Of a DNA stretch of 64,000 bases, positions 32,122 through 48,309 are shown in pieces (the first letter of the stretch is position 1; each line of letters starts with the position of its first letter). Below the pieces are notes generated by a model. It saw only the letters and a program-made list of their open reading frames with translations, did not search any database and was not told the origin of the DNA. A program made the translations under genes and the position numbers. Location: contig CBDANZ010000004.1 of the NCBI GenBank assembly GCA_965197865.1, positions 113,577-177,576 on the forward strand, written 5' to 3'. The stretch comes from Vicinamibacterales bacterium (lineage in GTDB: Bacteria > Acidobacteriota > Vicinamibacteria > Vicinamibacterales > CAVVIG01).

Positions 32122-33209
32122 GGCGTTGGTGCATGAATCGAACCCCACCCAGAACGATCCCGACCCAGGGGACTTTCATCGGCCGATGGCGTACGAGTCT
32201 GGCCTTCCCAGGTCGGTCATCTGATTCAAGATGTGGCACGCGATGAGCACCTCGGCTTGTTGCCCTCCGGGAGCTCGGGCGCGAAGGCGATCCCCGATGA
32301 TCGACTTGTACCGGAAGACGGCGTTCTCCACGCGGGCCTGCCGATAGTACCCAGCCTCCGCCTTCCACCGCCGCCGCCCGATCTGCTTCATCTTCCGGAT
32401 CGTGCGATCCCGAGCGCTCGACCGTGGTCTCCGTCGCGACACCCGTGCCGCCTTGTTCGGAGGGACCACGACGATTGCGTCCCGGGCCGTGGCCGCCGCG
32501 TAGAACGCGATCGTGTCGTAGGCCGCGTCGGCCGTGACGCGTGCGAGGTCGGCGTGGAGCGCCTCGATCAAACCGACACCGGTCGTCGCGTCGTCGACCG
32601 TCGCCTCGGTCAACGTGTGGGCCACGATCACACCCGCCCTGTCGACGCCGAGATGGAGCTTCTTCCAGCCGCGCTGGCCGCGACCGCCGTGCTTGGCCGG
32701 GGCCCACTCACCTTCGCCGGCGATCGAGAGGCCCGTGCTATCGACGAGGAGATGAATCGGCCCCTTGACCGGGACGCGGTGCAGCCCGACGGCCAGGTAC
32801 CGACTCCGGCGAGAAAGCGTGGTGTGGTCGGGCGCCTCGAGATCGACGTCCATCGAGGCGAGGACCGACCGCACAAAGCCCTCCGCTTGGCGCAAGGGCA
32901 GACGGAAGACAAGTCGGAGTGTCAACGTGGTGCTGATCGCGAGATCCGAGAACCGCTGCTGCCCGCCCGGTTGACCAGACGGCGACGGTCGCCACGCGTC
33001 CCGCGCGTCAGCAGACACCCACAGCGTCACGTCGCCTCGCTGGACCAGCCCTCGGTCGTATGCCGGCCAATTCCCGACGTGGTATTTCGTCTTGTACTTC
33101 GGTTGAACCCTCGACTTCATAGCGAGATCGTGCGCCACGGGCCCTCAACACGGCCAGGACCTCGACGCTCGCCCACGGGCGCCAAGCTGAGGAGCCGTGC
33201 ACCAACGCC
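32122..33209 (-). mobile_element. IS5-family IS, intact copy (1088 bp)
   Basis: Ends GGCGTTGGTGCATGAATCGAACC (starting at 32122) and ..GGAGCCGTGCACCAACGCC (ending at 33209). Confidence 0.9.
32176..33138 (-). CDS. IS5-family DDE transposase, 320 aa
   Basis: GTG start. ..HLLVDSTGLSIAGEGEW..KLHLGVD..ADAAYD..RWKAEAGYYRQARVENAVFRYKSIIG.. Confidence 0.9.
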   Translation of the reverse strand: MAHDLAMKSRVQPKYKTKYHVGNWPAYDRGLVQRGDVTLWVSADARDAWRPSPSGQPGGQQRFSDLAISTTLTLRLVFRLPLRQAEGFVRSVLASMDVDLEAPDHTTLSRRSRYLAVGLHRVPVKGPIHLLVDSTGLSIAGEGEWAPAKHGGRGQRGWKKLHLGVDRAGVIVAHTLTEATVDDATTGVGLIEALHADLARVTADAAYDTIAFYAAATARDAIVVVPPNKAARVSRRRPRSSARDRTIRKMKQIGRRRWKAEAGYYRQARVENAVFRYKSIIGDRLRARAPGGQQAEVLIACHILNQMTDLGRPDSYAIGR

Positions 33210-33210
33210 A

Positions 33211-34962
33211 CTCGCCGACGCTGTGGCCAAGTCCCCCGGTGTTGGCGGACCGGAATGGGTCGCTGCAATTCACAAGATCGGGCAGATGCAACGAGAACGC
33301 TACGAGGCCGAGGAGGCAGAAATCGAGCAGCTTCGATCCGAAATCGCATACTGGTTGGAGGGGGAACGGTACGATCCCGCCGCCGGAGCTCCGCTTGAAG
33401 CCTTGCTTACCCGCACGCAGCGCGTCTCGGTTTGGGCGAGCACGCAATTCCACACGATGGAGGGTGAGGCCGAGGCTTCTCTGTTTGCGTCTGCCCATGC
33501 GCAGGCGGAGGCACTCCTGACGGAGCTCGCGGGGCTTCGAAAGGATGGTACCGAGCGCATCGCACGGCTTGCGCTCGAGCGACGGATCGACGAGGTGACG
33601 ACCGACGCACCGGACCCTTCCACGTACGAGGAGGCCGGTCACACAGGGGCGGCGATCTCACCTGCCGCAGTGACAAGTCCTTGGCCGATAGTGGTTTGGT
33701 GGAATCTCGCGCACGCGCCGACCGCCGTCTCGTGTCCTTGGTCGTCGCGCGAACTCGCCGCCCTGCTTGCGTCCGGGGTGCGACTGCCAGAGGTCGAGGA
33801 CACTATTCGCCGACACAGCCGGGAGTGGCTGAGACCGCTGTGCCATGCCACAGAACAGTGTGTCCTGGTCGTGCACGACGACGAACGCGGAGCGCACCCG
33901 TTATGGACGCGGATCGAGAGCCTTTTCGATGGGATCGAGATAGTCCAGATCGAGTCCTCCCTGGTCGGTGGAGATATGACACTCAAGACGCTTGAGGTGC
34001 CGACGCGAGTACTTCCGATTCAGGTCCTGCCCGCGCCACGACGGTGGTGGTCACTGCCGGACGATTGCGTCGTCGCGCCTCGTGAGGTCGAGTCCTACTC
34101 CAGTCTCTCGAAGCTCTGCGACTACCCGCACGAGTGGGTGTTGTAGTACGCCGCGCGGCTCCGAGCCGGGAGCGCCGCCGAGGTAATGGATGGCTCCCGC
34201 CTCTTTGGAACCCTCGGGCACCGACTCTTCGAAGAGTTCTTTCGGACGCGCGACGACTGGCGCCGGATGCAAGACGACAACGTGCTCGCCTGGGTGCGCG
34301 CAGAATTGCCCGGACTCGTCGAACGCGAAGGCGCGGTGCTGCTCGAGCCCGGGCGCGGAGTTGACCGCCAGCGAATCGCCGTCACCCTGGAGCGGGCCCT
34401 GGTCCGGCTTCTGGCACACCTCCGGTCGGCCGGAATCGTGCAAGTAACACCTGAAGCCTCCGGACAAGTGCCGTTCGCGGGACGCCACCTGACCGGTGCC
34501 ATCGACTTGGTGTTGGCTTGCGGCAACGGACACCGCACTGTTCTCGACGTCAAGTGGGCAGGCGAAAGCTACCGTCGGGGCTTGCTCTCCGAAAACCGCA
34601 TCCTACAGCTGGCCACCTACTCCTACCTACAGAAAAATCTGGATGGGAGCGAACGATGGCCTTCTGGGACGTTCTTCATCCTATTCACCGGCAATGTCCT
34701 CGCGAGCGATGGATCAAGTTTCCCGGATGCAATCGTGTCCTCGTCGAAGGACGGCGAAGGCGTAGCGAATCTTTGGGATCGTCTTCGACTCACGTACGAC
34801 TGGCGATGGGCGCAGTTGCAAAGCAGGCGGATCGAGGTCGTGACGGACCTCACGGCACCTAACGAGCAGTCGACTCCCCCAGAGGCGGGGCTCCGTCCGG
34901 TCACCGGTGGCGATCAGTACGACGACTACGTGCGCCTCACGGGGTGGGAGGACTCCCGATGA
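33211..34962 (+). pseudogene. AddB-like RecB-family PD-(D/E)xK nuclease protein; N-terminus lost to IS5, one in-frame TAG
   Basis: One frame from the IS5 boundary to 34962, apart from a TAG at 34144..34146. Nuclease motifs after the stop: GTLGHRLFE, GAIDLVL..LDVKWAG, QLATYSYL. The first ~325 codons of ORF 32233..34146 are antisense of IS5. Confidence 0.75.
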
Positions 34963-37900
34963 GCGGTAGTCAGAGAGATCTCGCGCACGTGCGCTTCATC
35001 AGTGCCGGAGCGGGGAGTGGCAAAACATATCACCTGACTGAGGAACTTGAGCAAGCGCTGTCCGATGGCAGGGCGATGCCCGCGGCCGTGATTGGCACGA
35101 CGTTCACGGTGAAGGCCGCCACAGAGCTTCACGACCGCGTCCGAACTCGACTGATCAGGAGCGGCCGGCCCCTGTTGTCTGAGCAGATGGCACAGGCGGT
35201 CATTGGTACCGTGCACAGCGTCTGTGGGCGCCTGCTCCGGCGGTTCGCGTTCGAGCTCGGGCTCTCGCCCGTGCTCAACGTCGCAAGCGTCGAGGATGGT
35301 GCGCGTCTCTTCAACCAAGCATTGGACGAGGTGCTGAGTGTGGACCGTGTTCGAGAGATGAACCTTCGCGCCGAGCGTCTTGGGCTCGTCGACGACCAGG
35401 ACGGAACAAGCTGGCAGGACCACGTGCGGAAGATCGCGGAGGAGACGCGAAGCAACGACATTGACCCGACCACCCTGCCGACGATGGGCCGCGAAAGCGC
35501 GCGCCGGTTTCTCAGCTATTTTCCGGAAGCAACTCGCAACGACGAGGTGCGGGAGGCGCTACTCGCGGCCGTTCAGGAAGCGATGGCGAACATCGACCTT
35601 GCGTCCGATGCCACCAAAACCACGCGCGATTATGTGAGCCGGCTACACAGCGCCGCGGCTGAACTCCGGCGTGACAACTGCCGTTGGACGCTTTGGATCT
35701 CGCTGAGCAAGTCGTCGCCGGCAAAGAGGAGCGAATTTGCTGCAATGTCGGTACGGGCCGCAGCCGCTTCCTATGACGGTCATTCGGGCTTTCACGCCGA
35801 CATACGCAGGTACATCGAAGGCGTTTTTGCGATCGCTGGGGAGGCTCTTTCCCGTTTCCAGAGCTTGAAGACCGAGCGCGGCCTCGTCGACTACGACGAC
35901 ATGGAACAGCTCGCGCTCCGAGCCCTCGACGAGCCCGCCGTGGCGGAACGTCTCAGCGACGAGGTGGATCTGTTACTCGTCGACGAGTTCCAGGACACGA
36001 ACCCAATGCAGCTCGCGCTCTTTATGAAGATTGCGCGCCTGGCTCACGAGGTGGTCTTCGTCGGAGACGTGAAGCAGGCCATCTTCGGTTTCCGGGGAAG
36101 CGACCCGGAGCTCGTGCGAGGCACGCTCGATGCCCTCGCCGCCTGCGGCAGCAAGCTCGACGTGCTCGATAGCTCCTGGCGAGCGCGGCCGTCGATTGTG
36201 CGCTACCTGAACGCCGTATTTGGTGAAGCCTTCGAACGCGACGGCATGGAACGCGCATCGGTCGAGCTATCACCCGAGCGCCAGGAGACTCACGACTCGC
36301 CAGCGGTAGTGCGTTGGACCCTCCCAAGGACGAGGAAAGTAGCGGAGCAGGCAGACGCTTTGGCACTCGCTATTCTCGAATTCAAGAGATCCGGACAACG
36401 AGTGAACGACCCGGAGACGAGAGACACGCGGGCTGTCACCTTCGGCGATATTGCGGTGCTCGCCACAACCAACGGTCACGTGCAATCCATCGCGAAAGCG
36501 TTGCGCGAACGACGCATACCCATGAAGATGACCCTGGCCGGGCTTCTCGAGACGCCCGAGGTGTGCCTTGCAAGAGCGTGCCTGTGCCGCCTGAACGACC
36601 CCGCCGACACCATCGCCACGGCCGAAATCCGGGTTCTGGGCTCCTGTGAGGAGCCGGAAGTTTGGCTCGCAGACCGGCTTCGCTGGCTCAAGGCTGAAGA
36701 GGAGGACCGGAGCTGGGCCGAGACCGACGATCCGATCGTATCGCGCATCGCACATTTGCGCGATTAGACGATTACCCAGTCCCCGGTCGAGATCGTCGCG
36801 CGAGTGCTCAACTATGTCGGTGTCCGCGCGATCTCGACTGCATGGGGACCTGATGCGATCACCGCCACCCAGCGCCAGCGCAACCTCGATGCCTTCCTCG
36901 ATTTGGCGGTCGAGTACGAGAATCACTGCGCGTCGCAACACGAGGCGGCGACCCTAACCGGCTTTCTGTTCTGGGTAGAGAATCCAACATCTCCGGCACT
37001 CGATCTGCAGCCGGTGGTGACCGGCGGCGACGCCGTCCACGTCCTGACCTATCATCGCGCGAAGGGCCTCGAGTGGCCAGTCGTCGTAGTAACTGACTTT
37101 CACTATACTTGGCGCTCCCAGATCTGGGACGTTCGCGTCGAGTCGACCTTGGACGAGCTCGATCTCGACAATCCCCTTAAGGGGCGGACCATCCGCTTCT
37201 ACCCAAATGTTTTCGGCAGAAACACCAAGAACGTTCCCGTTCTCGATGGCATCATGGAGTCGGAGGAGGGTGTTCGGGCGACTGCTGCAGTCGACGCCGA
37301 GGGACGCCGCTTGGCGTATGTAGGGATGACGCGGGCCCGGGACACGATCATCGTTGCCGTGCCGTCGTCGGCGCCGAGCGGAGATGCCTGGATCAAGAGC
37401 TTTACCTCCGACCACCTTCTTCCTGCTGGCGATGAACACCCGCTTCCAGGTGGCGAGCCCATCCCGTCGGCCGTCGTTGACTTGTCCGCAACCGACGTCA
37501 CGGTTCCCGCACCCACTCCGTTCACGCCAACGTGGTTCCTTGAACGCTCCCCGACCGAGCTTCGACTCCGCGAGCGGCTGAACCCCTCCGACGCCGGGCC
37601 CGCGGAGGGCGCCGCTGTAGGCAGTATCGTCGAGTTAGGGCCACGCCTTGCGGTTCACGGCGATGACATGGGGAGGATCGGCACCGCGCTCCATGCAGTG
37701 ATTGCCGCGGAGTTCGTGAATCCAGGCCGAGACGACGCAGTCGAATACGCAGCGTCCGTCATCCAGAATGCGGTCGGCGAGGAGGCGATGGCCCCGGCGG
37801 ACGCAATCGAATGTGCACGACGCCTCAGGGCGGTCCTTAACGCCCGGTTCGGTCCGCACCGCATCCTGGTTGAGCATCCCGTGAAGCTCGTCCAGAACAA

Positions 37901-38186
37901 TGGTCAGGTGCTCCACGGCTGGATCGACCTGCTCATCGAAACCGAGGCTGGGTGGATCGTCATCGACCACAAGTCCTCCCCGCGTCCGCGCTCAGAGTGG
38001 GCCGACGAGGCACTGGAACATTCGGGTCAACTCGCCGCGTACGCGAGCGCCCTAAGAGGTGCCGGTCTCGGATGCGCGGAATGTTGGGTGCACTTTCCGG
38101 TGAGTGGGGGGCTGGTGCAAGTCGTGCTCAACCGCGAGACTAACAGCGACAGGCCGCGAGCAACGTCCTTGCCGACAGCTCCATAG
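34944..38186 (+). pseudogene. AddA/UvrD-like SF1 helicase fused to a PD-(D/E)xK nuclease; one in-frame TAG
   Basis: Single frame with a TAG at 36765..36767. Motifs: AGAGSGKT, LLVDEFQDTNPMQ, VGDVKQAIFGFRGS, YHRAKGLEWPVVVV, YVGMTRARDTIIV. C-terminal nuclease: GWIDLLIE..VIDHKSS, QLAAYASAL. The start overlaps the upstream gene by 19 nt. Confidence 0.8.
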
Positions 38187-38311
38187 GCGTGCCGCGTCCT
38201 CCACCAGCAGGCTCATCTAGCGCCGCATACGGAAGAAGCGCGTTGGAGTATGACGGTGCCGAACTGGGTCGGCCAACATGGAAACCCAAATCAAGTCGAT
38301 AGAGTTAGACC

Positions 38312-39205
38312 ATGAAGAAATGCCTGTCCTGCGCAGAAAAGATCCAAGATGCGGCAGTTGTCTGCCGCTACTGCGGACGCGATCAACCCGGCACGGCCGG
38401 GGCGCTGCTGCCGAAGCCACCGAGTCCCGGCGTTGCTGCGGTTCTCAGTCTAATCATCCCTGGGGCGGGCTACATGTACGCGGGACGCGTCGGTGCTGGA
38501 CTCGCGCTGCTCGCCTTCACGATCGCCGGCTACGCCCTTTCTATTTTCCCAGGGGCTTTCATACACATCCTAGTGATCTTCGCTTCGATCAGAGCAGCGA
38601 AATCTAAGGGCCGCGTTCCGGTTGAGAGGTCTAATGATCGCGGCGTGGATGACTGGCCCGACCTACTCGATCGAGCCGACGTGCTCATTCTCGACACAGA
38701 GACGACCGGGTTTACGGATCAGTCGGAAGTGATCGATGTGGCGGTGCTCGACACTTGCGGAACGGTAAGCTTCGACCGGCTCAGCATGCCGGAAGGACGA
38801 ATACCAACGCAGGCCACAGCTGTCCATGGCCTCACGCGGGCAGACCTCAGGCGCCAGAAGGCTCCAGCCTGGCCTGAGGTCCACGATGACTTGGTGCGCG
38901 TGCTCACCGCAGCGACGATTGTGATCGCGTATAACGCCGATTTCGACTCGCGTTTGCTCCGACAGACCGCTGAGCGACATGGCCTGACTATGCCTGATCT
39001 ATCCTGGCGCTGCACGATGCTTGATTATGCGGCCCACGTGGGCGAGAAGTGGAAGAGCGGGCCCCACAAAGGGCAGTGTCGATGGCAGACACTTGAAGTC
39101 GCTGCGACGCGAGAGGGCGTGGAGCCTGCTGGCGCGCACCGTGCATTAGCCGATGCGAAGATGACACTTGGGGTTCTGCGAGCGGTGGCCGCGCCACAGC
39201 CTTGA
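38312..39205 (+). CDS. zinc-ribbon, two TM helices and a DEDDh (DnaQ-like) 3'-5' exonuclease, 297 aa
   Basis: CLSCAEKIQDAAVVCRYCG; TM segments VAAVLSLIIPGAGYMYAG and LALLAFTIAGYALSIFPGAFIHILVIF. Exonuclease motifs LILDTETTG, AYNADFD, HRALADA. Confidence 0.8.
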   Translation: MKKCLSCAEKIQDAAVVCRYCGRDQPGTAGALLPKPPSPGVAAVLSLIIPGAGYMYAGRVGAGLALLAFTIAGYALSIFPGAFIHILVIFASIRAAKSKGRVPVERSNDRGVDDWPDLLDRADVLILDTETTGFTDQSEVIDVAVLDTCGTVSFDRLSMPEGRIPTQATAVHGLTRADLRRQKAPAWPEVHDDLVRVLTAATIVIAYNADFDSRLLRQTAERHGLTMPDLSWRCTMLDYAAHVGEKWKSGPHKGQCRWQTLEVAATREGVEPAGAHRALADAKMTLGVLRAVAAPQP

Positions 39206-39360
39206 TGTACGGTCTCAAAGCCGCTGAACTACCCCGTACTTGGCCAGATCCGCCAGCATCGGATTCGACAGTGAGATCGCGCTGATTCGATTTTTGTAAA
39301 GTCAAGATGACCTTGCACAAACACAGAGTATGAGCTTATCGGTATGAAAACAATGTCGCT

Positions 39361-39369
39361 CCCCCCCCC
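39361..39369 (+). repeat. C9 homopolymer between ATG 39344 and the helicase reading frame
   Basis: CCCCCCCCC read directly. ATG 39344 is 50 nt upstream of the ORF-track TTG start at 39394 (50 mod 3 = 2). Confidence 0.9.
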
Positions 39370-39671
39370 AACCACGAGCTGCCGACAGATCTTTTGGCTC
39401 GAGAGGATTTTCTGTTTCGCGAGGACAACACTCCCTCTCTCACCGATATACAGTGGGATGCACTGAGCGCTGGAGTCGGCCGTGGGGAAAGCGTGCTCGC
39501 TCTGGCGCCGACATCGACTGGAAAGACACAGATCGGCATCTGGGCTTTGGCCTCATGGCTGGTCGGCGATAGGGCTCGGCGTCGCGCCGTCTATCTGGTT
39601 ACGCATCGCAGCCTCGCGAAACAAGAATTCGAAGACTTTCAGCGCATCCTCCTTGGTTCTTTGTTTGCCGG

Positions 39672-41070
39672 GAGTGAGTGCTAGTCTCAGTTGAAATTCG
39701 GGTGGCGACCCCGTATAGGAATGAGCGTTCCACCAAGAACGGCACATTCCAGGAGGTCACCACCCAGGGCGCGCAAAGTACGACAGATGCGAGGAAAAGG
39801 AAACCACATCGGCCTGGTGCCGGTACCGTCGATGGCGGCCCCGGACCTGGACACGCGCATTGCGTTGATCCAGGCGCTGATTCCGGTGGCGCTCGAGAAG
39901 GTGCACGTCGAGTGGCAGGCCGATGTGGAGCGGCTCGCTGGCGAGCGGTATGTGCGGGAGGGCCGGCGGCTGGGCCACGTGCGCTGGACGGCGCAACGGG
40001 GGTCGATTTACTTGGCCGATCAGAAGATTCCGCTCGCGGTGCCGCGGGTGCGCGATCGCCTGCGGAACCAGGAGGTGCCGCTGCCCACCTACGAGCAGTT
40101 GCAGGCACCGCGCACCCGCGACGCCGGGCTGCTGCACAAGGTCCTCGGCGGCTTGTCCACCCGAGAATACGAGCGGTGCGCGGAGGCGGTCCCGGAGGCC
40201 TTCGGCTTGAGCGCCTCGACGGTGTCGCGTCGCTTCAAGCGGGCCAGTGCGCGAAAGCTGCAGGAACGGCTGGAACGGCGCCTCGACCGCGACGACGTGG
40301 TCGCCCTGCTCCTCGACGGCAAGACGTTCGCGGAGGATGAGAGGGTCGCGGCCGTCGGCATCACGATCACCGGGGAGAAAGTGCTCCTCGGGTTCGTGCA
40401 AACGGCCACCGAGAATCGGAAGGTCTGTGCGGCATTCCTCCGCGAGCTCGTGGACCGCGGGCTGCGCACGGACCTCGGCCTCCTCGTCGTGACCGACGGC
40501 GCCAAAGGGTTGCACGCGGCGGTCCGCGAGGTGTTCGGGACGGCGGCCCGGCTGCAGCGCTGTCAGTGGCATAAGCGCGAGAATGTCCTGGCCTATCTTC
40601 CGGAGCGTCACCGGCCGACCCTGCGCCGGAAGCTGCAGGCGGCGTATGAGCAGCCGACGTACGAGGCCGCCAAGCGCGCGCTGGGAAAGGTCCGCGCCGA
40701 ACGGGTCCTTCTCAATGCCTCCGCAGTGGCAAGCTTGGACGAGGGCCTGGAGGAGACGCTCACCCTTCATCACCTCGGCGTCTTTCGCAAGCTGGGCACG
40801 AGCTTGAAAACGACCAGTGCGCTCGAGTCGATCCACGCCCGTGTCGAGAGCCGTATCGCCAAGGTCGATCACTGGAAGAACAGCGAGCAGAAGCAGCGCT
40901 GGTTGGCCACCGCATTGCTCGATCTCGAGCCGCGGCTGCACCGCATCAAGAACTTCCGAGCGCTGCCCTTGCTGCGTGTCGCATTCACGCGACAGATCGA
41001 AGGAATGAAGAAGTCGGCGGCGTAAACCAGAGGGTCGTCACAGAATGTCAACTACGAATGGCATTGACTT
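39672..41070 (+). mobile_element. IS256-family IS, type 3 (1399 bp) with 8-bp target duplication
   Basis: Ends GAGTGAGTGCTAGTCTCAGTTGAAATTCGGGTGGCGACC.. and ..GGTCGTCACAGAATGTCAACTACGAATGGCATTGACTT. Direct repeat TTTGCCGG at 39664..39671 and 41071..41078. Confidence 0.88.
39691..41025 (+). CDS. IS256-family transposase (type 3)
   Basis: 444-codon ORF (ATG 39787 is the likelier start). LLLDGKTFAEDERVAAVGITITGEKVLLGF, CQWHKRENVLAYLP, TTSALESIHA. Confidence 0.88.
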   Translation: MKFGWRPRIGMSVPPRTAHSRRSPPRARKVRQMRGKGNHIGLVPVPSMAAPDLDTRIALIQALIPVALEKVHVEWQADVERLAGERYVREGRRLGHVRWTAQRGSIYLADQKIPLAVPRVRDRLRNQEVPLPTYEQLQAPRTRDAGLLHKVLGGLSTREYERCAEAVPEAFGLSASTVSRRFKRASARKLQERLERRLDRDDVVALLLDGKTFAEDERVAAVGITITGEKVLLGFVQTATENRKVCAAFLRELVDRGLRTDLGLLVVTDGAKGLHAAVREVFGTAARLQRCQWHKRENVLAYLPERHRPTLRRKLQAAYEQPTYEAAKRALGKVRAERVLLNASAVASLDEGLEETLTLHHLGVFRKLGTSLKTTSALESIHARVESRIAKVDHWKNSEQKQRWLATALLDLEPRLHRIKNFRALPLLRVAFTRQIEGMKKSAA

Positions 41071-42274
41071 TTTGCCGGCGCCTCGGACGCAATGGTCCTG
41101 TCTACCGGAGACCGACAGGTCAATGCCAATGGCGCAGTCGTCAACGAACCGCTTCGCGCCAGTCTTCTTGTTGCGACTTACGAGAAATACCTCGGCCTCT
41201 TCTGCGGCGGTGGCATTCCCAGCGATCTTCGCGATACGTGTATTGTGGCCGACGAGATCAACATTCTTGGTGACCAGTCTCGCGGTGTACATGTTGAAAC
41301 GCTTCTCACCCTGCTTCGCCAAGGTCGACCAGTGCAGTTCATTGGGCTTTCTGCTGTTCTCACTGAACAGGACGGCCACAGTCTTGCCGATTGGTTACAC
41401 GTGAAGCTTGTCCGTGTAACACACCGAGAGAAACACCTTCGCTATGAGTGTCGCACACCGACGACGCGATTCACTTTTCACACTGGAACACCTGGCGAAG
41501 GTATTCGTGATGAACGCGTGGGGCCTGGGATGGCAACGGATCCGCACGCTCTAATCAGTGAATGCATGAGCGGGAACGACGGTAAACCTGTCGTTGTTTT
41601 CTGTATGAGTAAGAGGGAGATGTACAGTGGTTGCCGGACATATTGTCAATCACACGATATTCCCCTGGAGGGTGCGCCGTTGCTTGAAGGACTTAGCATG
41701 GACACACCCGAGGCTGCATTACTGTCAGCCACGATGCCTCACGGGGTCGCCATTCATTGCGCGGACCTGGTGGAAGCCGATCGGTTAAAGGTCGAGGAAG
41801 CACTTAAGGCTCACGAAGTCAACTTAATCTTCGCCACATCAACATTAGCTGCGGGGGTAAATGTCCCACTTGGAACGGCCATTTGTTATTCATGGAAGCG
41901 CTGGAATTGTGATCGCCGGTGCTACGAGCCCATCTCGGCTGGCGAATTTCACAACATGGCTGGGCGTTGTGGCAGGATGGGAACCGAGCATGAACACGGC
42001 CACGTGATCTTTCTCGCAAATGACGGATATAGCGATCAGATCGCGATTCAGACTTTTCTCAATCCGGATCACCTGGACAGCTTAGACAGTCACATCTCGC
42101 CGGATCATTTCACGCCGCTCGTGCTCCAACTGGCAGCGTCCAACGTGGTGAGTACAGAGCATGATGCGCTGACCTTTCTGAAGGCCACGTTCGGCGCTTC
42201 ACGGGAACTGGAGGTCAATGCTGCTGGTCTTGCTCATTGGGATGCGCCGTTTCGGGAAGTCGTAGCTGAACTTC

Positions 42275-42990
42275 GTGGCTGGACGTTTCTCAGATGACCC
42301 CACCGTCGAGCAGGCTCTCCGTTACGCCAATCGGGGTGTCGTTGCTCAGTCTGTCCTCCATCCGCGTAGCGCGATTCAGTTAATCGAATATACCGCACGC
42401 GGCGCGAACGATTTGCTCGCCTTGACCAATTCCGAGACAGACGAGCAAACACTTCGCTACGCCCTTCTGCACGCGGCCTATTCGTCCGACGAGTACAGCA
42501 ACCGCGGCGGCGACAAAGTGCTGCCTTGCCAGCTCGATCCCATTGTCCAGAACGATCTCGCAGTTCAAGCTGAACCCTACCTGATCGAGCATCCATGGGT
42601 GCGCAACCCTAAGTCGGCAAATGCGGCACTGCTGGCCATGCGATGGGCCAAGGGCGAGCCAAGGAATGCACTTTCTCCTGAGTTTCAGACAATCGGTTCT
42701 GGTGTCCTGCAGACCATGTTCCGGGAGGGTAGAGAGATTCTATTTGCCTTGTCTGATTGCCTGATCGCTGGCACGGCTCCGCATCTTACCGATGCAGACC
42801 GTCCAGAAGTGTGCCGTGGCAACGCTGACTGGCTTCGAGATCTGCGCAATTTGGCTTCCGTCATCCGTACACAAGCCATCCCACTTGTCGAAGGTCTCCC
42901 AGGTGAAGTGACGTGGCTTGCCAGGTTGACCGTTGGAGGCACTGGCCTGCGGCTCTTGTCGAGGACCGCCATCATGGCGTTGTTCACTAA
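42275..42990 (+). pseudogene. continuation of the Ski2-like helicase (WH/ratchet-like region) in another frame, 3'-truncated by an IS407-type element
   Basis: GTG 42275 overlaps the helicase stop by 23 nt. ..ALRYANRGVVAQSVLHPRSAIQLIEY.. reads like the post-RecA2 region of Hel308-type helicases. The ORF runs into the IS IR at 42991. Confidence 0.5.
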
Positions 42991-43016
42991 TGAGGGGCTC
43001 CGGCTTTTTCGGACCA

Positions 43017-43835
43017 CTACGCGGGTGAGTCCGCAGCCGTTGTCATCGTTCGCCGGGCGTATTCATTAGGGCTGAGCCCCTTGAGAGCCCGGTGAGGATG
43101 ATTCTCATTGTAGTCCCACCGAAACGCGTCGATCTTCTGCTGCGCGTCCTCGAGCGACGCGAACCAATGCACGTTCAGACATTCCTCCCGGAACCGCCCG
43201 TTGAACGATTCGATGGTGGCGTTGTCCGTGGGCTTGCCGCGCCGGCTGAAGTCCAGGATGACGCCGTTGGTGTAGGCCCAGCGCTCCATCGCCGAGCTGA
43301 CGAACTCGGTCCCGTTGTCGCAGTAGATCCGTTGGGGCAACCCGCGCTCGAATCGGAGATGCTCCAGCGTCGCCGCGACATCCTGTCCGCGAAGGCCCTG
43401 TTCGACCTCGATCGCCAGGCATTCGCGGGTAAACAGGTCTATGACGGTGAGCGTCCGGAAGCGGCGGCCGTCGGCCAGCTCGTCCGCCACGAAATCCATG
43501 CTCCAGATATCGTTGCGGGTCATGGCTGGCCGTCGCTGCTCGTGATGGCCGGCCGTCGCGTGGCGCCACGGGCGCTTCCGCCGGAGCGCTAGGCCTTCCT
43601 CGATGTACACGCGATAGAAGCGCTCTTTGCCGACGTCCCAGCCTTCGCGCCGCAGCAACACCAGCAGCCGGCGATAGCCGAACCGGACGCGCGCCTGGGC
43701 CAGTTCGTGCGCCCGCTGACGCAGAGCCGTGAGCGGATCCTTCCGGCGCGTGTAGTACACCGATGACCGCGTCGTCTTCACGACGCGGCAGGCGCGGCGG
43801 ATGCTCACGCCGTAGCGGCCCATCAAATACTGCAT
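43017..43835 (-). CDS. IS3-family transposase OrfB (rve core)
   Basis: WSMDFVADELADGRRFRTLTVIDLFTRECLAI, YCDNGTEFVS, KPTDNATIESFNGRFREECL. Confidence 0.9.
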   Translation of the reverse strand: MQYLMGRYGVSIRRACRVVKTTRSSVYYTRRKDPLTALRQRAHELAQARVRFGYRRLLVLLRREGWDVGKERFYRVYIEEGLALRRKRPWRHATAGHHEQRRPAMTRNDIWSMDFVADELADGRRFRTLTVIDLFTRECLAIEVEQGLRGQDVAATLEHLRFERGLPQRIYCDNGTEFVSSAMERWAYTNGVILDFSRRGKPTDNATIESFNGRFREECLNVHWFASLEDAQQKIDAFRWDYNENHPHRALKGLSPNEYARRTMTTAADSPA

Positions 43836-43858
43836 GACCTCACGCTGTTTGACGGGCT

Positions 43859-44164
43859 TCAGAACTTTTTTTCGACGACATCCTGGAGCATGACCTTGTC
43901 CAGGGACAGGTCGGCGACGAGACGCTTGAGCTTCGTATTTTCGTCCCGCAGTTGTTTCAGCTCGCGGGCCTCACTGGGCAGCATGCCGCCGTATTCCTTC
44001 TTCCAGCGGTAGAACGTCTGCTCGGACACGCCGACCTGGCGGCAGACGTCCCCGACCGGTACCCCGGCCCCGACCTGCTGCAACACGCCGGTGATCTGCT
44101 CGACGGAAAAGCGCGTTCTCTTCACGGCACACCCTCCTGGCCGATCGGCCTGATTGTGCCGCAA
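43859..44164 (-). CDS. IS3-family transposase OrfA (HTH plus leucine zipper)
   Basis: RTRFSVEQITGVLQQVGAGVPVGDVCRQVGVSEQTFYRWKKEYGG and ELKQLRDENTKLKRLVADL. GTG 44125 is a likelier start than TTG 44164. Confidence 0.88.
   Translation of the reverse strand: MRHNQADRPGGCAVKRTRFSVEQITGVLQQVGAGVPVGDVCRQVGVSEQTFYRWKKEYGGMLPSEARELKQLRDENTKLKRLVADLSLDKVMLQDVVEKKF
43865..43872 (-). promoter_or_regulatory. A AAA AAG slippery heptamer for -1 programmed frameshift (orfA-orfB fusion)
   Basis: The coding strand reads GTC GAA AAA AAG TTC TGA. A -1 slip gives ..KKVLKPVKQREVMQYLMGRYG.., continuous with orfB. Confidence 0.75.
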
Positions 44165-44225
44165 GACTCACCCTGGCAATGGTCTGAAAAACCCGGAGCC
44201 CCTCAATCGTGTCGCGGTACTCCTG

Positions 44226-45680: not shown

Positions 45681-46033
45681 GCCCCGGTCTACGGGAATCT
45701 TGATGTCCTCCGTATATCGGCTTCGGGTTCAGCCTCCGTGCGCGGCGGAGTCGACGTGTCGCACGCGCGGGCCGTGACTCGGTGAATCCCTCCAATCTTG
45801 CGTGCCGATGCATGCCAACACGACGTTCGACTGAGCGGTTACCCCAACCGCTACACGGTGATGAAAAGCGCTTTAGGTGAGCAACCATGACCGACGACGA
45901 GGTGGAGCTTTGGCAGCGTTCGTTATTGGTGATGCGATCGTCGATGGTCGCGGATATACAACAATTCGTCAAATGAGCGATTGAGCAATAGATGCGGGGT
46001 TGCGCTTAGCAGTCTGTGTTTAAACCCTGCGAT

Positions 46034-46879
46034 TCACGCGGCGACGGGTAGCAGCTCAAAACAATGACGCGGCGACGACCCCGGCGATCGATCAACGAAT
46101 CTTGGTTCATGGTTCCCCCAGAGAGCGCCGAGGCGCGCCCATACGGCGATGAAGACAGCCAAGACGCCTGCGGCGCGGCCCTGCAAGCGCCGTGGCGTGC
46201 CGATGCCGAGGCACTGGCGCATCGCGAGCCCCAAGTTGAAGCCGCCGCCATGAATCAGTAGACGCTTCAAGATGTTGTCGTGTCCCCGCAAGTGCGTGCG
46301 TCGCATCCCGCCGGTCTCATAGAGGTGGGCAAACGATCGCTCGGCGAGTTCCGCCCGTCGCCGCCGCAAGCGTCGCCCGCGGGCGCCCCGGAGACGGCGG
46401 CGATTCCCATGGACGGGCGCGTACGCATCCGGCGCGTCGGACCAATCGCGCCGGCCACGGTCGGGTTCCGAAATGTACGACCGCAGGCCCACCGCAGCCA
46501 GGTCTACCATCGTCTCGTTGCTGTGATAGCCCTTGTCCGCGACGATGTCCTCCAACCTCCCGCGCGCGTCGGTCGTCGCGTGCGCGGCTTCCACCTGTTC
46601 GGCCGCCGTGATCGCCGCCGTGACAAGCGTCCTCGTGTCGCCCTGATCGGCGCCCTGCACCGTCACCGCGACCAACGCGCCGCTCTCCAGATCGATCGCA
46701 TGCTCGGCTTTGTGCGCCAAGTGCGTCTGGCCGTCTTTCATTTTCGCGACCTTCGCATCAGGATCGCTGGGGCTGGTCCACTCGCTGTTCGAGGTTTTCT
46801 TCTTCCGCGTGCGATCAAACCGCGCCAAGACTTCGCGCGTCGGCGTCTTGATCCCCGAGGCGGCGGCGAGGCGGGTCAG
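46034..46879 (-). pseudogene. IS1182/IS5-type DDE transposase, C-terminal part, cut by IS3 copy B
   Basis: IVADKGYHSNE and AERSFAHLYETGGMRRTHLRGHDNILKRLLIHGGGFNLGL. The N-terminus is missing at the 46880 boundary. Confidence 0.75.
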
Positions 46880-46921
46880 TGAACCGTACCGGGTTTCTCG
46901 GAGACCTCATTACTTGGGAGG

Positions 46922-47251
46922 ATGGGGTCTATGGGACGTCCAAGTCGGTTTTCTCCGGAGGTGCGTGAGCGCGCGGTTCGAATGGTCGAGGAGCATCGCG
47001 CCACCCACGCGTCGGAGTGGGGCGTGTTGCAGTCGGTGGCGCCGAAGCTTGGCTGCACGGCCGAGACGCTACGGAAGTGGGTACGCCAGGCACAGCGTGA
47101 CGCCGGCTATCGCCCAGGGTTGACGACGAGCGAGCGAGAGCGCCTCAAGGAACTGGAGCGCGAGGTTCGCGAGCTGAAGCGGGCGAACGAGATCCTGCGG
47201 AAGGCGTCCGCGTATTTTGCCCAGGCGGAGCTCGACCGCCGCGGGAAGTGA
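46922..47251 (+). CDS. IS3-family transposase OrfA
   Basis: Protein identical to 5695..6024. Confidence 0.9.
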
Positions 47252-48144
47252 TGGTTCGCTTCATTCACGACCATCGGGATCAGTACGGGGTCGAGCCGAT
47301 CTGCACCGTGCTGCCGATCGCCCCCTCGACGTATCACCGCCATCGGGCGGCGCAGGTCGATCCGACGCGTCGCTCGGCCCGGGCACAACGCGATGATGCG
47401 CTGCGCCCGGAGATTCAGCGGGTGTATGACGAGCATCATCAGGTGTACGGGCCGCGCAAGGTCTGGAAACAGCTGCGTCGCGAAGGGTTCTGCGTGGCAC
47501 GAGGCACGGTGGGTCGGCTGATGCGGGCGATGGGCCTGGAAGGCGCGGGGCGTGGGCGCGCGTGGATCACGACCACGCACGCGGGCAATGGCAGCCGGCC
47601 CGCAGATCTCGTCGATCGCCAGTTCGTGGCGACCCGTCCGAATCAGCTCTGGGTCTCAGACTTCACCTACGTGGCGACCTGGGGTGGGTTCACCTACGTG
47701 GCGTTCGTGATCGACGTCTTCGCGCGGCGCATCGTGGGCTGGCGGGTGTCGGCCTCGATGCGCACGGACTTCGTGCTCGACGCCTTGGAGCAGGCCATCT
47801 ATGCGCGCCGCGGCGACGCGCTGACCAGCCTCGTGCATCACAGCGATCGCGGCACGCAGTATCTTTCGATGCGGTACACGGATCGTCTCGCGGCCGCCGG
47901 CATTGCGCCATCGGTCGGGAGCCAAGGCGATGCGTTCGATAACGCCCTCGCCGAGTCGGTGATCGGACTCTACAAGACGGAGGTGATTCGACGACGAGGG
48001 CCGTGGCGCACGCTCGAGGCCGTGGAATTCGCCACGCTGGAGTGGGTGGATTGGTTCAACATGCGGCGGTTGCTGGGACCGATTGGAGACGTGCCGCCGG
48101 CGGAGTTTGAAGCGCAGTACTATGAGCAGGCCAAGGTGGCCTGA
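47248..48144 (+). CDS. IS3-family transposase OrfB
   Basis: Protein identical to 4802..5698. Confidence 0.9.
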
Positions 48145-48309
48145 TTCAATGAATCCAGTCTCCGAGAAACCCGGTACGGTTCAGTCGCCAGACATGGGGA
48201 ACTTGACAGTGCCGCCGAGCGGGGGACGTCCGCACGCCAGGTGCGTCCACGGCGCCGCCGGTCTCGGCTACGGTGCAGGAGGCTAGCGCCTGACCCCAAA
48301 CGGCCGTGG

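Follow-up and report, generated by a model that had tools for sequence, protein, structure and literature searches.

Does a run of nine cytosines just inside a helicase gene of a Vicinamibacterales bacterium work as a reversible ON/OFF switch, or is it a mutation that breaks the gene? The question arises from a 64,000-nt stretch of DNA (hereafter the window), in which a first-pass annotation, made from the sequence alone, had noticed that the run separates an upstream ATG from the open frame of a Ski2-like helicase and had proposed slipped-strand switching. To answer it, we examined the tract and its reading frames, its counterparts in related organisms, the genes around it, and the rest of the source genome (G000; C1 to C5 in coordinates are its contigs).

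A frame-breaking C9 run behind a conserved start codon

No homopolymer in the 64-kb window is longer than the C9 run at 39361-39369, which lies 17 nt downstream of ATG 39344; the only others of at least 7 nt are three G7 runs. The sequence reads ...cggtATGAAAACAATGTCGCT-CCCCCCCCC-AACCACGAGCTG..., and the region contains the following features:

39206-39343, + strand: intergenic/5′ region that separates the helicase start from the DEDDh exonuclease gene; ~96-99% identity to clade relatives
39344-39346, + strand: conserved ATG, the start of the Hel308/Ski2-like helicase gene, as indicated by the N-termini of orthologues
39344-39466, + strand: frameshifted product of 40 codons (MKTMSLPPPTTSCRQ...GMH), followed by TGA
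39361-39369, + strand: C9 homopolymer, +2 relative to the ancestral C7 (CT-C CCC CCC, Leu6-Pro7-Pro8), C7 being found in 10 of 10 clade relatives
39370-39671, + strand: helicase 5′ fragment past the tract, with motif I (APTSTGKT), up to the insertion point of an insertion sequence (IS); Pfam DEAD, E=4e-9; 98.8% identity to relatives

Examination of the reading frames bears out most of what had been claimed for this site. The helicase frame is open from 39334, directly behind a TGA at 39331-39333, and contains no ATG or GTG before the TTG at 39394, which is the earliest of its possible start codons (ATG, GTG or TTG). With nine cytosines, translation from ATG 39344 gives MKTMSLPPPTTSCRQ... and is out of frame with the helicase; ten would give MKTMSLPPPNHELPTDLL... 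and seven MKTMSLPPNHELPTDLL..., both of which lead into the helicase frame, as the frame arithmetic of the first-pass annotation had it. The early termination of the ATG frame is also correct, except that the TGA (39464-39466) follows 40 codons and not the 38 that had been counted. The surroundings are AT-rich, as had been noted: GC content is 49% in the 138-nt intergenic region and 37% in the 76 nt around the start, compared with 64% for the genome. A scan of the 5′ region for the sigma-70 consensus gave no match. The presence of such a run is unremarkable in itself, because G/C runs of at least 9 nt number 46 in the 3.14-Mb genome, about one per 68 kb, so that a 64-kb window is expected to contain one. 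Ancestry accounts for where this one lies, the run being an expanded Leu-Pro-Pro coding tract.

This ancestry emerges from comparison with related proteins and loci. When the conceptually rejoined helicase was used as the query of a protein search, it recovered a compact family whose members are 513-514 aa long, show 54-89% identity over the helicase part and have the N-terminus MKT(M)SLPPNH(G/E)LP and the C-terminus ...WTFLR, together with ~960-aa fused forms at ~40% identity. The best match belongs to a 90%-identity cluster of ten members; where these extend to the N-terminus, the sequence is ...SLPPNH..., which contains two prolines. For DNA comparison we used ten clade relatives, which represent at least 9 assemblies: L009, L012, L013, L014, L015, L065, L066, L067 and L068 from ENA metagenome contigs, and L020 from an NCBI Bryobacterales metagenome-assembled genome (MAG). 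All ten carry TCG CTC CCC CCC AAC, a C7 tract in frame with the corresponding ATG, and their flanks are 96-99% identical to the window. None of them has C8, C9 or C10, and the window is the sole +2 allele.

Further out, the homopolymer is broken or disappears. The more distant orthologues L010, L011 and L021 have CTT CCC CCC (C6), CTG CCG CCC and CTT CCG CGC, respectively, and at the tract site of 24 further loci, which come from Myxococcota, Proteobacteria, Campylobacterota and other groups, no G/C run exceeds 5 nt; all 24 retain the N-terminal pattern MK-x-x-LP-x-x-H-G-L. This pattern is common to orthologues of many phyla and identifies ATG 39344 as the true, family-wide start. Because the homopolymer is shorter or absent outside the clade, the tract represents a lineage-specific choice of Leu-Pro-Pro codons and no conserved device. 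The helicase was absent from the family-level relatives in the genome collection, its close relatives coming only from the ENA metagenome contigs and the one NCBI MAG, and an exact look-up of the window's DEDDh exonuclease protein returned no identical record.

Lesions across the helicase island

The helicase is part of a five-gene island (window 33344-42991) in which the C9 run is accompanied by several other defects. The features that matter here are:

34144-34146, + strand: in-frame TAG in the AddB-like nuclease gene; CAG in three relatives
36765-36767, + strand: in-frame TAG in the AddA-like UvrD/PD-(D/E)XK gene; CAG (Gln) in five relatives
38312-39205, + strand: zinc-ribbon and DEDDh (RNase_T) exonuclease gene, the sole undamaged island gene in this genome
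39664-39671: left copy of an 8-bp target-site duplication, TTTGCCGG, present as a single copy at the relatives' empty site
39672-41070, + strand: IS256-family element of 1,399 bp with imperfect terminal inverted repeats; Pfam Transposase_mut, E=1.9e-32
39691-41025: transposase ORF of the IS256-family element
41071-41078: right copy of the target-site duplication, TTTGCCGG
41079-42297, + strand: helicase 3′ fragment with motifs Ib-VI and the winged-helix region, ending at the natural TGA 42295-42297
42294-42990, + strand: remnant of the translationally coupled partner gene, which overlaps the helicase gene by ATGA and encodes 456 aa in relatives
42991-44205, − strand: IS3-family element truncating the partner gene; Pfam rve/rve_3; ends TGAGGGGCTCCGG / CCGGAGCCCCTCA; five other copies in the genome

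The most severe of these defects lies in the helicase itself. The frame described by the first-pass annotation is real, yet it ends at 39684, since an IS that the annotation of this site leaves unmentioned is inserted at 39672 and splits the gene after codon 109. This element, whose ends are GAGTGAGTGC.../AAGTCAATGC..., has the characteristics of the IS256 family: a Mutator-type DDE transposase, imperfect inverted repeats, an 8-bp duplication, and several copies, of which four full-length and one partial lie elsewhere in the genome at 99-99.3% identity. Alignment of the window with its relatives runs up to 39671 and resumes at 41071, with an 8-bp overlap that corresponds to the empty site, and the element is absent from all relatives. 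When the IS and one repeat are excised in silico (39671 joined to 41079), a single frame runs through all helicase motifs. Three other IS256-family copies in the source genome (C2:135796, C2:226411 and C2:413929) contain an in-frame TGA at a position where the window copy has TGG (Trp), and the copy that splits the helicase thus has an intact transposase frame. No second copy of the helicase was found in the genome.

In all 36 loci that have enough flanking sequence, the helicase is accompanied by the partner, either as its neighbour or fused to it. In the window, the partner gene carries two lesions of its own. A 1-nt deletion at 42333-42336, where the window has GGGG and relatives have GGGGG, GGGCG or GGGAG, leads to a stop after 30 codons. 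Downstream, homology to the relatives ends at 42991, where the IS3-type element begins, and the 3′ 672 nt of the gene, lost here, were found nowhere in the genome. An apparent frameshift at 42297, from the helicase into the next ORF, was considered as a further lesion and rejected: the relatives have two genes with an ATGA overlap at this point, and the real −1 deletion is ~40 nt onward. With the helicase split by an IS and its obligate partner broken, no tract length turns the gene on.

Upstream, the AddA-like gene that is interrupted here by TAG is one 1,075-aa ORF in L009, L014 and L015. Recoding of TAG as a rescue of the AddA-like and AddB-like genes was rejected. None of the tRNAs reported by ARAGORN has the anticodon CUA, and RF1, which scores above its cut-off, is intact; in a genome with no amber suppressor tRNA and an intact RF1, both TAGs are real stops.

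The island is ~98% identical to L020 (G041 C4:338534-345595), which belongs to an 8.2-Mb Bryobacterales MAG, whereas the ilvC genes of that genome and this one are only 78% identical. This difference indicates recent horizontal transfer of the island. GC content is 54-57% in the helicase and partner part and 62-65% in its neighbours. Damage to the operon recurs in other hosts, as seen in a survey of broken operons that covers L014, L015, L020, L021 and L067 and the proteins P0124-P0127. In L014 the exonuclease gene contains an IS and the partner gene is short; in L015 the helicase is frameshifted, and here it is the partner gene that contains an IS. The helicase is interrupted by an IS in L020 and by ~1 kb of sequence in L021. 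L067 has an A7-to-A8 change right after the start codon, plus a truncation; P0126 contains a 74-residue internal duplication and P0127 a C-terminal frameshift. The operon has been inactivated independently in several hosts, with IS insertions that differ between them.

Decay, miscall or switch

The genome that surrounds the island is rich in repeats. Segments of at least 600 bp at 95% identity or more, 194 in all, make up 9.6% of its 3.14 Mb, and among 24 sampled relatives of the same family one measures 2.6 Mb and the rest 3.9-8.1 Mb. Several IS families are present in 19-28 additional copies each, and the window overlaps 16 of the repeat segments, including 32122-33211, 39669-41069, 43000-44205 and 45997-48186. 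G/C homopolymers are numerous as well (38 of 8 nt, 18 of 9, 8 of 10, 3 of 11 and 17 of 13-34). The longest of them, C2:137752-137785 (G34), C5:438416-438449 (C34) and C2:371129-371160 (G32), lie outside the window, and 15 of the 17 longest fall outside crude GC3-defined coding ORFs; A/T runs do not exceed 9 nt. Very long C runs also occur in some family relatives, including at least one assembly of few contigs (G006), and are missing from most. This tail of G/C tracts may be a feature of the lineage or an artefact of long-read sequencing. Loss of mismatch repair as the cause of tract instability was rejected, MutS and MutL having intact long open frames.

Many apparently continuous genes elsewhere in the genome also contain in-frame TAGs (C3:512759/513227/513557, C2:591514/592261, C5:835182 and C2:229860), three of them within one TolC-like gene, one in pilT and one in an MBOAT gene, where it falls in the FPQLVAGPI motif. 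With no amber suppressor tRNA and RF1 intact, the TAGs of this genome have the appearance of C-to-T nonsense mutations; the comparison with relatives, which have CAG instead, covers the two in the AddA-like and AddB-like genes. The genome-wide scan for in-frame stops is noisy, as it also picks up adjacent genes and antisense frames, and it provides no pseudogene count. ARAGORN also reports a tRNA-His with anticodon ATG beside a normal GTG copy, three tRNA-Leu(TAA) and no tRNA-Leu(CAG), an odd set that may reflect further G:C-to-A:T changes or miscalls.

We consider it probable that the C9 run arose incidentally, as a slippage lesion in an island that was acquired horizontally and is decaying, and that it is no programmed switch. 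The C-run is the coding sequence of Leu6-Pro7-Pro8 in a Hel308/Ski2-like helicase whose functional state in this clade is C7 (CTC CCC CCC). Replication slippage would have added two bases, in one +2 or two +1 steps, and put ATG 39344 out of frame. The expansion would then be one of at least six independent lesions in the helicase/nuclease island, the others being the IS256-family insertion, the −1 frameshift in the partner gene, the IS3-type truncation, and the CAG-to-TAG nonsense changes that affect the AddA-like and the AddB-like gene. In a shrunken genome overrun by IS elements such a tract would drift in length, unselected, as a passive pseudogene scar. We infer both slippage as the mutational route and neutral decay, rather than a regulated state, as the condition of the gene. 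A run of nine cytosines is long enough for appreciable slippage, so that some cells may carry other lengths.

The decay reading takes the C9 call at face value, and the call itself may be wrong. The true tract might be in frame, either as a C10 read one base short or as a C7, with the long-read consensus in error and the IS still real; we think this unlikely, but it is the main uncertainty. A test for changes of frame across G/C runs with coding signal on both sides found them at 8 of 27 runs of at least 7 nt; the rate was 2.8% for random positions and 2.4-4.5% where the run is 4-6 nt long. On inspection, three of these eight proved to be ordinary boundaries between genes and the other five to be frameshifts within one gene, at runs of 7-10 nt: ilvC (G8, C4:523453-523460), an ExeA-like ATPase (G10, C3:621792-621801), an MFS transporter (C1:160304-160310), a cNMP-binding histidine kinase (C5:665071-665077) and an IS110 transposase (C4:364471-364477). 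The ilvC of G041 aligns without gaps only if the run here is G9, and, with the rest of the ilvBN-ilvC cluster intact, the break in ilvC has the look of a consensus miscall. Over ~9.7 kb, the window and its relatives differ by two indels in total, both in G/C runs, and the naming of contigs in related records suggests long-read metagenome assemblies. Assemblies made from long reads only retain homopolymer-length errors, and calling of 8-9-nt runs at the read level is weakest for cytosines (PMC9262707; PMC8812927).

At the consensus level, in contrast, most runs shorter than 11 nt are reported to be resolved and such calls to be mostly correct (PMC9262707). Frame changes are not in excess at runs of 4-6 nt, and the genome contains many substitution-type and IS-type lesions beyond any homopolymer errors, which indicates that real decay is ongoing. 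Consensus homopolymer errors are mostly of ±1. A true C7 would need an error of +2, and an error of ±1 would leave a true C10 or C8, still expanded from C7. The frame-broken genes at G/C runs are either real pseudogenes or homopolymer miscalls, and assembly may have produced some of the indels. Because frame breaks at G/C runs are frequent in this genome, homopolymer 'switches' proposed from its assembly alone are unreliable.

That caution extends to the switch originally proposed, a true contingency locus in which a hypermutable C-run would toggle a helicase-nuclease defence module ON (C7 or C10) and OFF (C8 or C9). A locus of this type would be recognized by a repeat tract in the 5′ coding region or promoter whose length sets expression, by ON/OFF tract-length polymorphism between close relatives, by retention of the uninterrupted tract in orthologues despite synonymous freedom, and by a gene otherwise intact, so that switching alters a phenotype. 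The tract itself fits, as it occupies codons 6-8, directly past the conserved start, and its length sets the frame. In addition, an ON length (C7, in the relatives) and an OFF length (C9, in the window) both exist in nature, long G/C runs are unusually numerous in the genome, and homopolymer phase variation of restriction-modification systems is established (PMC12707154). The remaining properties are lacking. Tract length is fixed at C7 in all ten relatives, with no intermediate lengths. Orthologues outside the clade have lost the tract, an outcome that the first-pass annotation had named beforehand as contradicting a switch. With MutS and MutL apparently intact, a C7 tract should be reasonably stable, and the only genome with another length also has an IS-disrupted gene, a truncated partner and no second copy, which would make for switching without a phenotype. 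What survives of the proposal is that the window carries an OFF allele of the slipped-strand type, in which the tract sets the frame; that it is a programmed, reversible switch we judge improbable, with C7 universal among the relatives and the gene dead. We give no more credence to a wider version, in which a C7 ON/longer OFF switch controls a Hel308-like defence module in Bryobacterales and the IS256 insertion serves as a second, excisable lock. If true, it would be slipped-strand phase variation in a helicase-based defence outside the restriction-modification systems, in Acidobacteriota, and the switch might belong to a genome-wide set of long G/C tracts.

It is scarcely credible that the frameshift is bypassed, be it by initiation at TTG 39394, at the cost of 17 N-terminal residues, or by transcriptional or ribosomal slippage on the C-run. 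TTG 39394 is in frame with the helicase, and the ATG and helicase frames differ by −1 across an all-C run on which prolyl-tRNA could conceivably re-pair. No Shine-Dalgarno-like sequence precedes this TTG, however, and the N-terminal residues that would be lost (LP..HGLP.DLL) are conserved across phyla. Moreover, any bypass product ends at the IS-derived stop at 39682-39684 after ~96 residues, which makes bypass irrelevant.

The helicase family and comparison with known systems

The label 'Ski2-like' given to the helicase is correct, as judged by the nearest PDB structures and the NCBIfam matches. Pfam DEAD and Helicase_C domains are detected on the fragments and on the intact relative P0121, with APTSTGKT and DEIN motifs; the nearest solved structures are 2zj2 (E=5e-34), 2va8, 2p6r, 9b15, Brr2 and Ski2, and the best NCBIfam matches are Hel308-type models. 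On these grounds we classify the window helicase, at the level of predicted domains, as a Ski2/Hel308-like SF2 helicase. Two narrower assignments were rejected. For a Hel308 equivalog, the two homologues scored fall far too low (130-201 bits for the fused P0069 and 103-163 for the split, 514-aa P0121, against NCBIfam cut-offs of 887-1216). As for Hachiman, the helicase is matched by HamB models over parts only, never full length, and a search of the partner protein and the upstream exonuclease for HamA (DUF1837) gave no match. PADLOC returned partial matches to HamB and PDC-M23B.

The 514-aa helicase and the 456-aa partner constitute the split form of a ~960-aa protein found across many phyla (41079-42990; L012:6001-8912; L021-L060). 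The partner, or C-terminal part, belongs to no curated family and contains a weak Vsr/PD-(D/E)xK-like motif (...GAPDF...VTELK..., E=0.012). An AddAB-like pair and an exonuclease accompany helicase and partner in the Bryobacterales clade only.

These results have implications for how the tract should be regarded. In the reading that we prefer, it is a textbook case of a slippage frameshift within a pseudogene, to which no regulatory role should be assigned. More interesting than the tract are the mobile island itself, which combines AddAB-like genes, a DEDDh exonuclease and a split Hel308-like helicase-nuclease and is repeatedly and independently inactivated across hosts, and the genome, of which IS repeats make up 9.6% and in which G/C tracts of 13-34 nt form a heavy tail.

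Comparison with known systems places the locus more precisely. The helicase family resembles archaeal Ski2-type/Hel308 helicases in its DEAD and Helicase_C domains and closest solved structures; it differs from Hachiman in that it has no HamA-like partner and that its C-terminal half is a separate or fused region of ~450 aa. The tract shares with residual long-read errors a length discrepancy that is confined to G/C runs, in a genome whose frame breaks at runs of at least 7 nt hit housekeeping genes (ilvC); it departs from them in being +2 rather than ±1, and errors in 9-nt consensus runs are reported to be uncommon (PMC9262707). Homopolymer slippage underlies phase variation of restriction-modification and contingency genes ('phasevarions'), and the window has the corresponding arrangement, a G/C homopolymer in the first codons of a defence-type gene whose length sets the frame (PMC12707154). 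Unlike phasevarions, the locus shows no polymorphism in ten relatives, C7 is the sole ON length found, the tract is limited to one clade, mismatch repair genes are present, and the gene is irreversibly broken.

IS256 acts as a reversible switch in the Staphylococcus epidermidis ica operon, where it inserts and is precisely excised. The window likewise has an IS256-family element with an 8-bp duplication inside a coding sequence, and precise excision would restore the frame; unlike the ica case, there is no sign of excision in the window, and the remaining lesions would hold the system off. Homopolymer frameshifts also give rise to pseudogenes in the IS-expanded, shrinking genomes of Shigella, Burkholderia mallei and Mycobacterium leprae/ulcerans. 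The present locus resembles these genomes in having slippage indels, nonsense mutations and IS insertions side by side in one operon, within a 3.1-Mb genome of which 9.6% consists of IS repeats.
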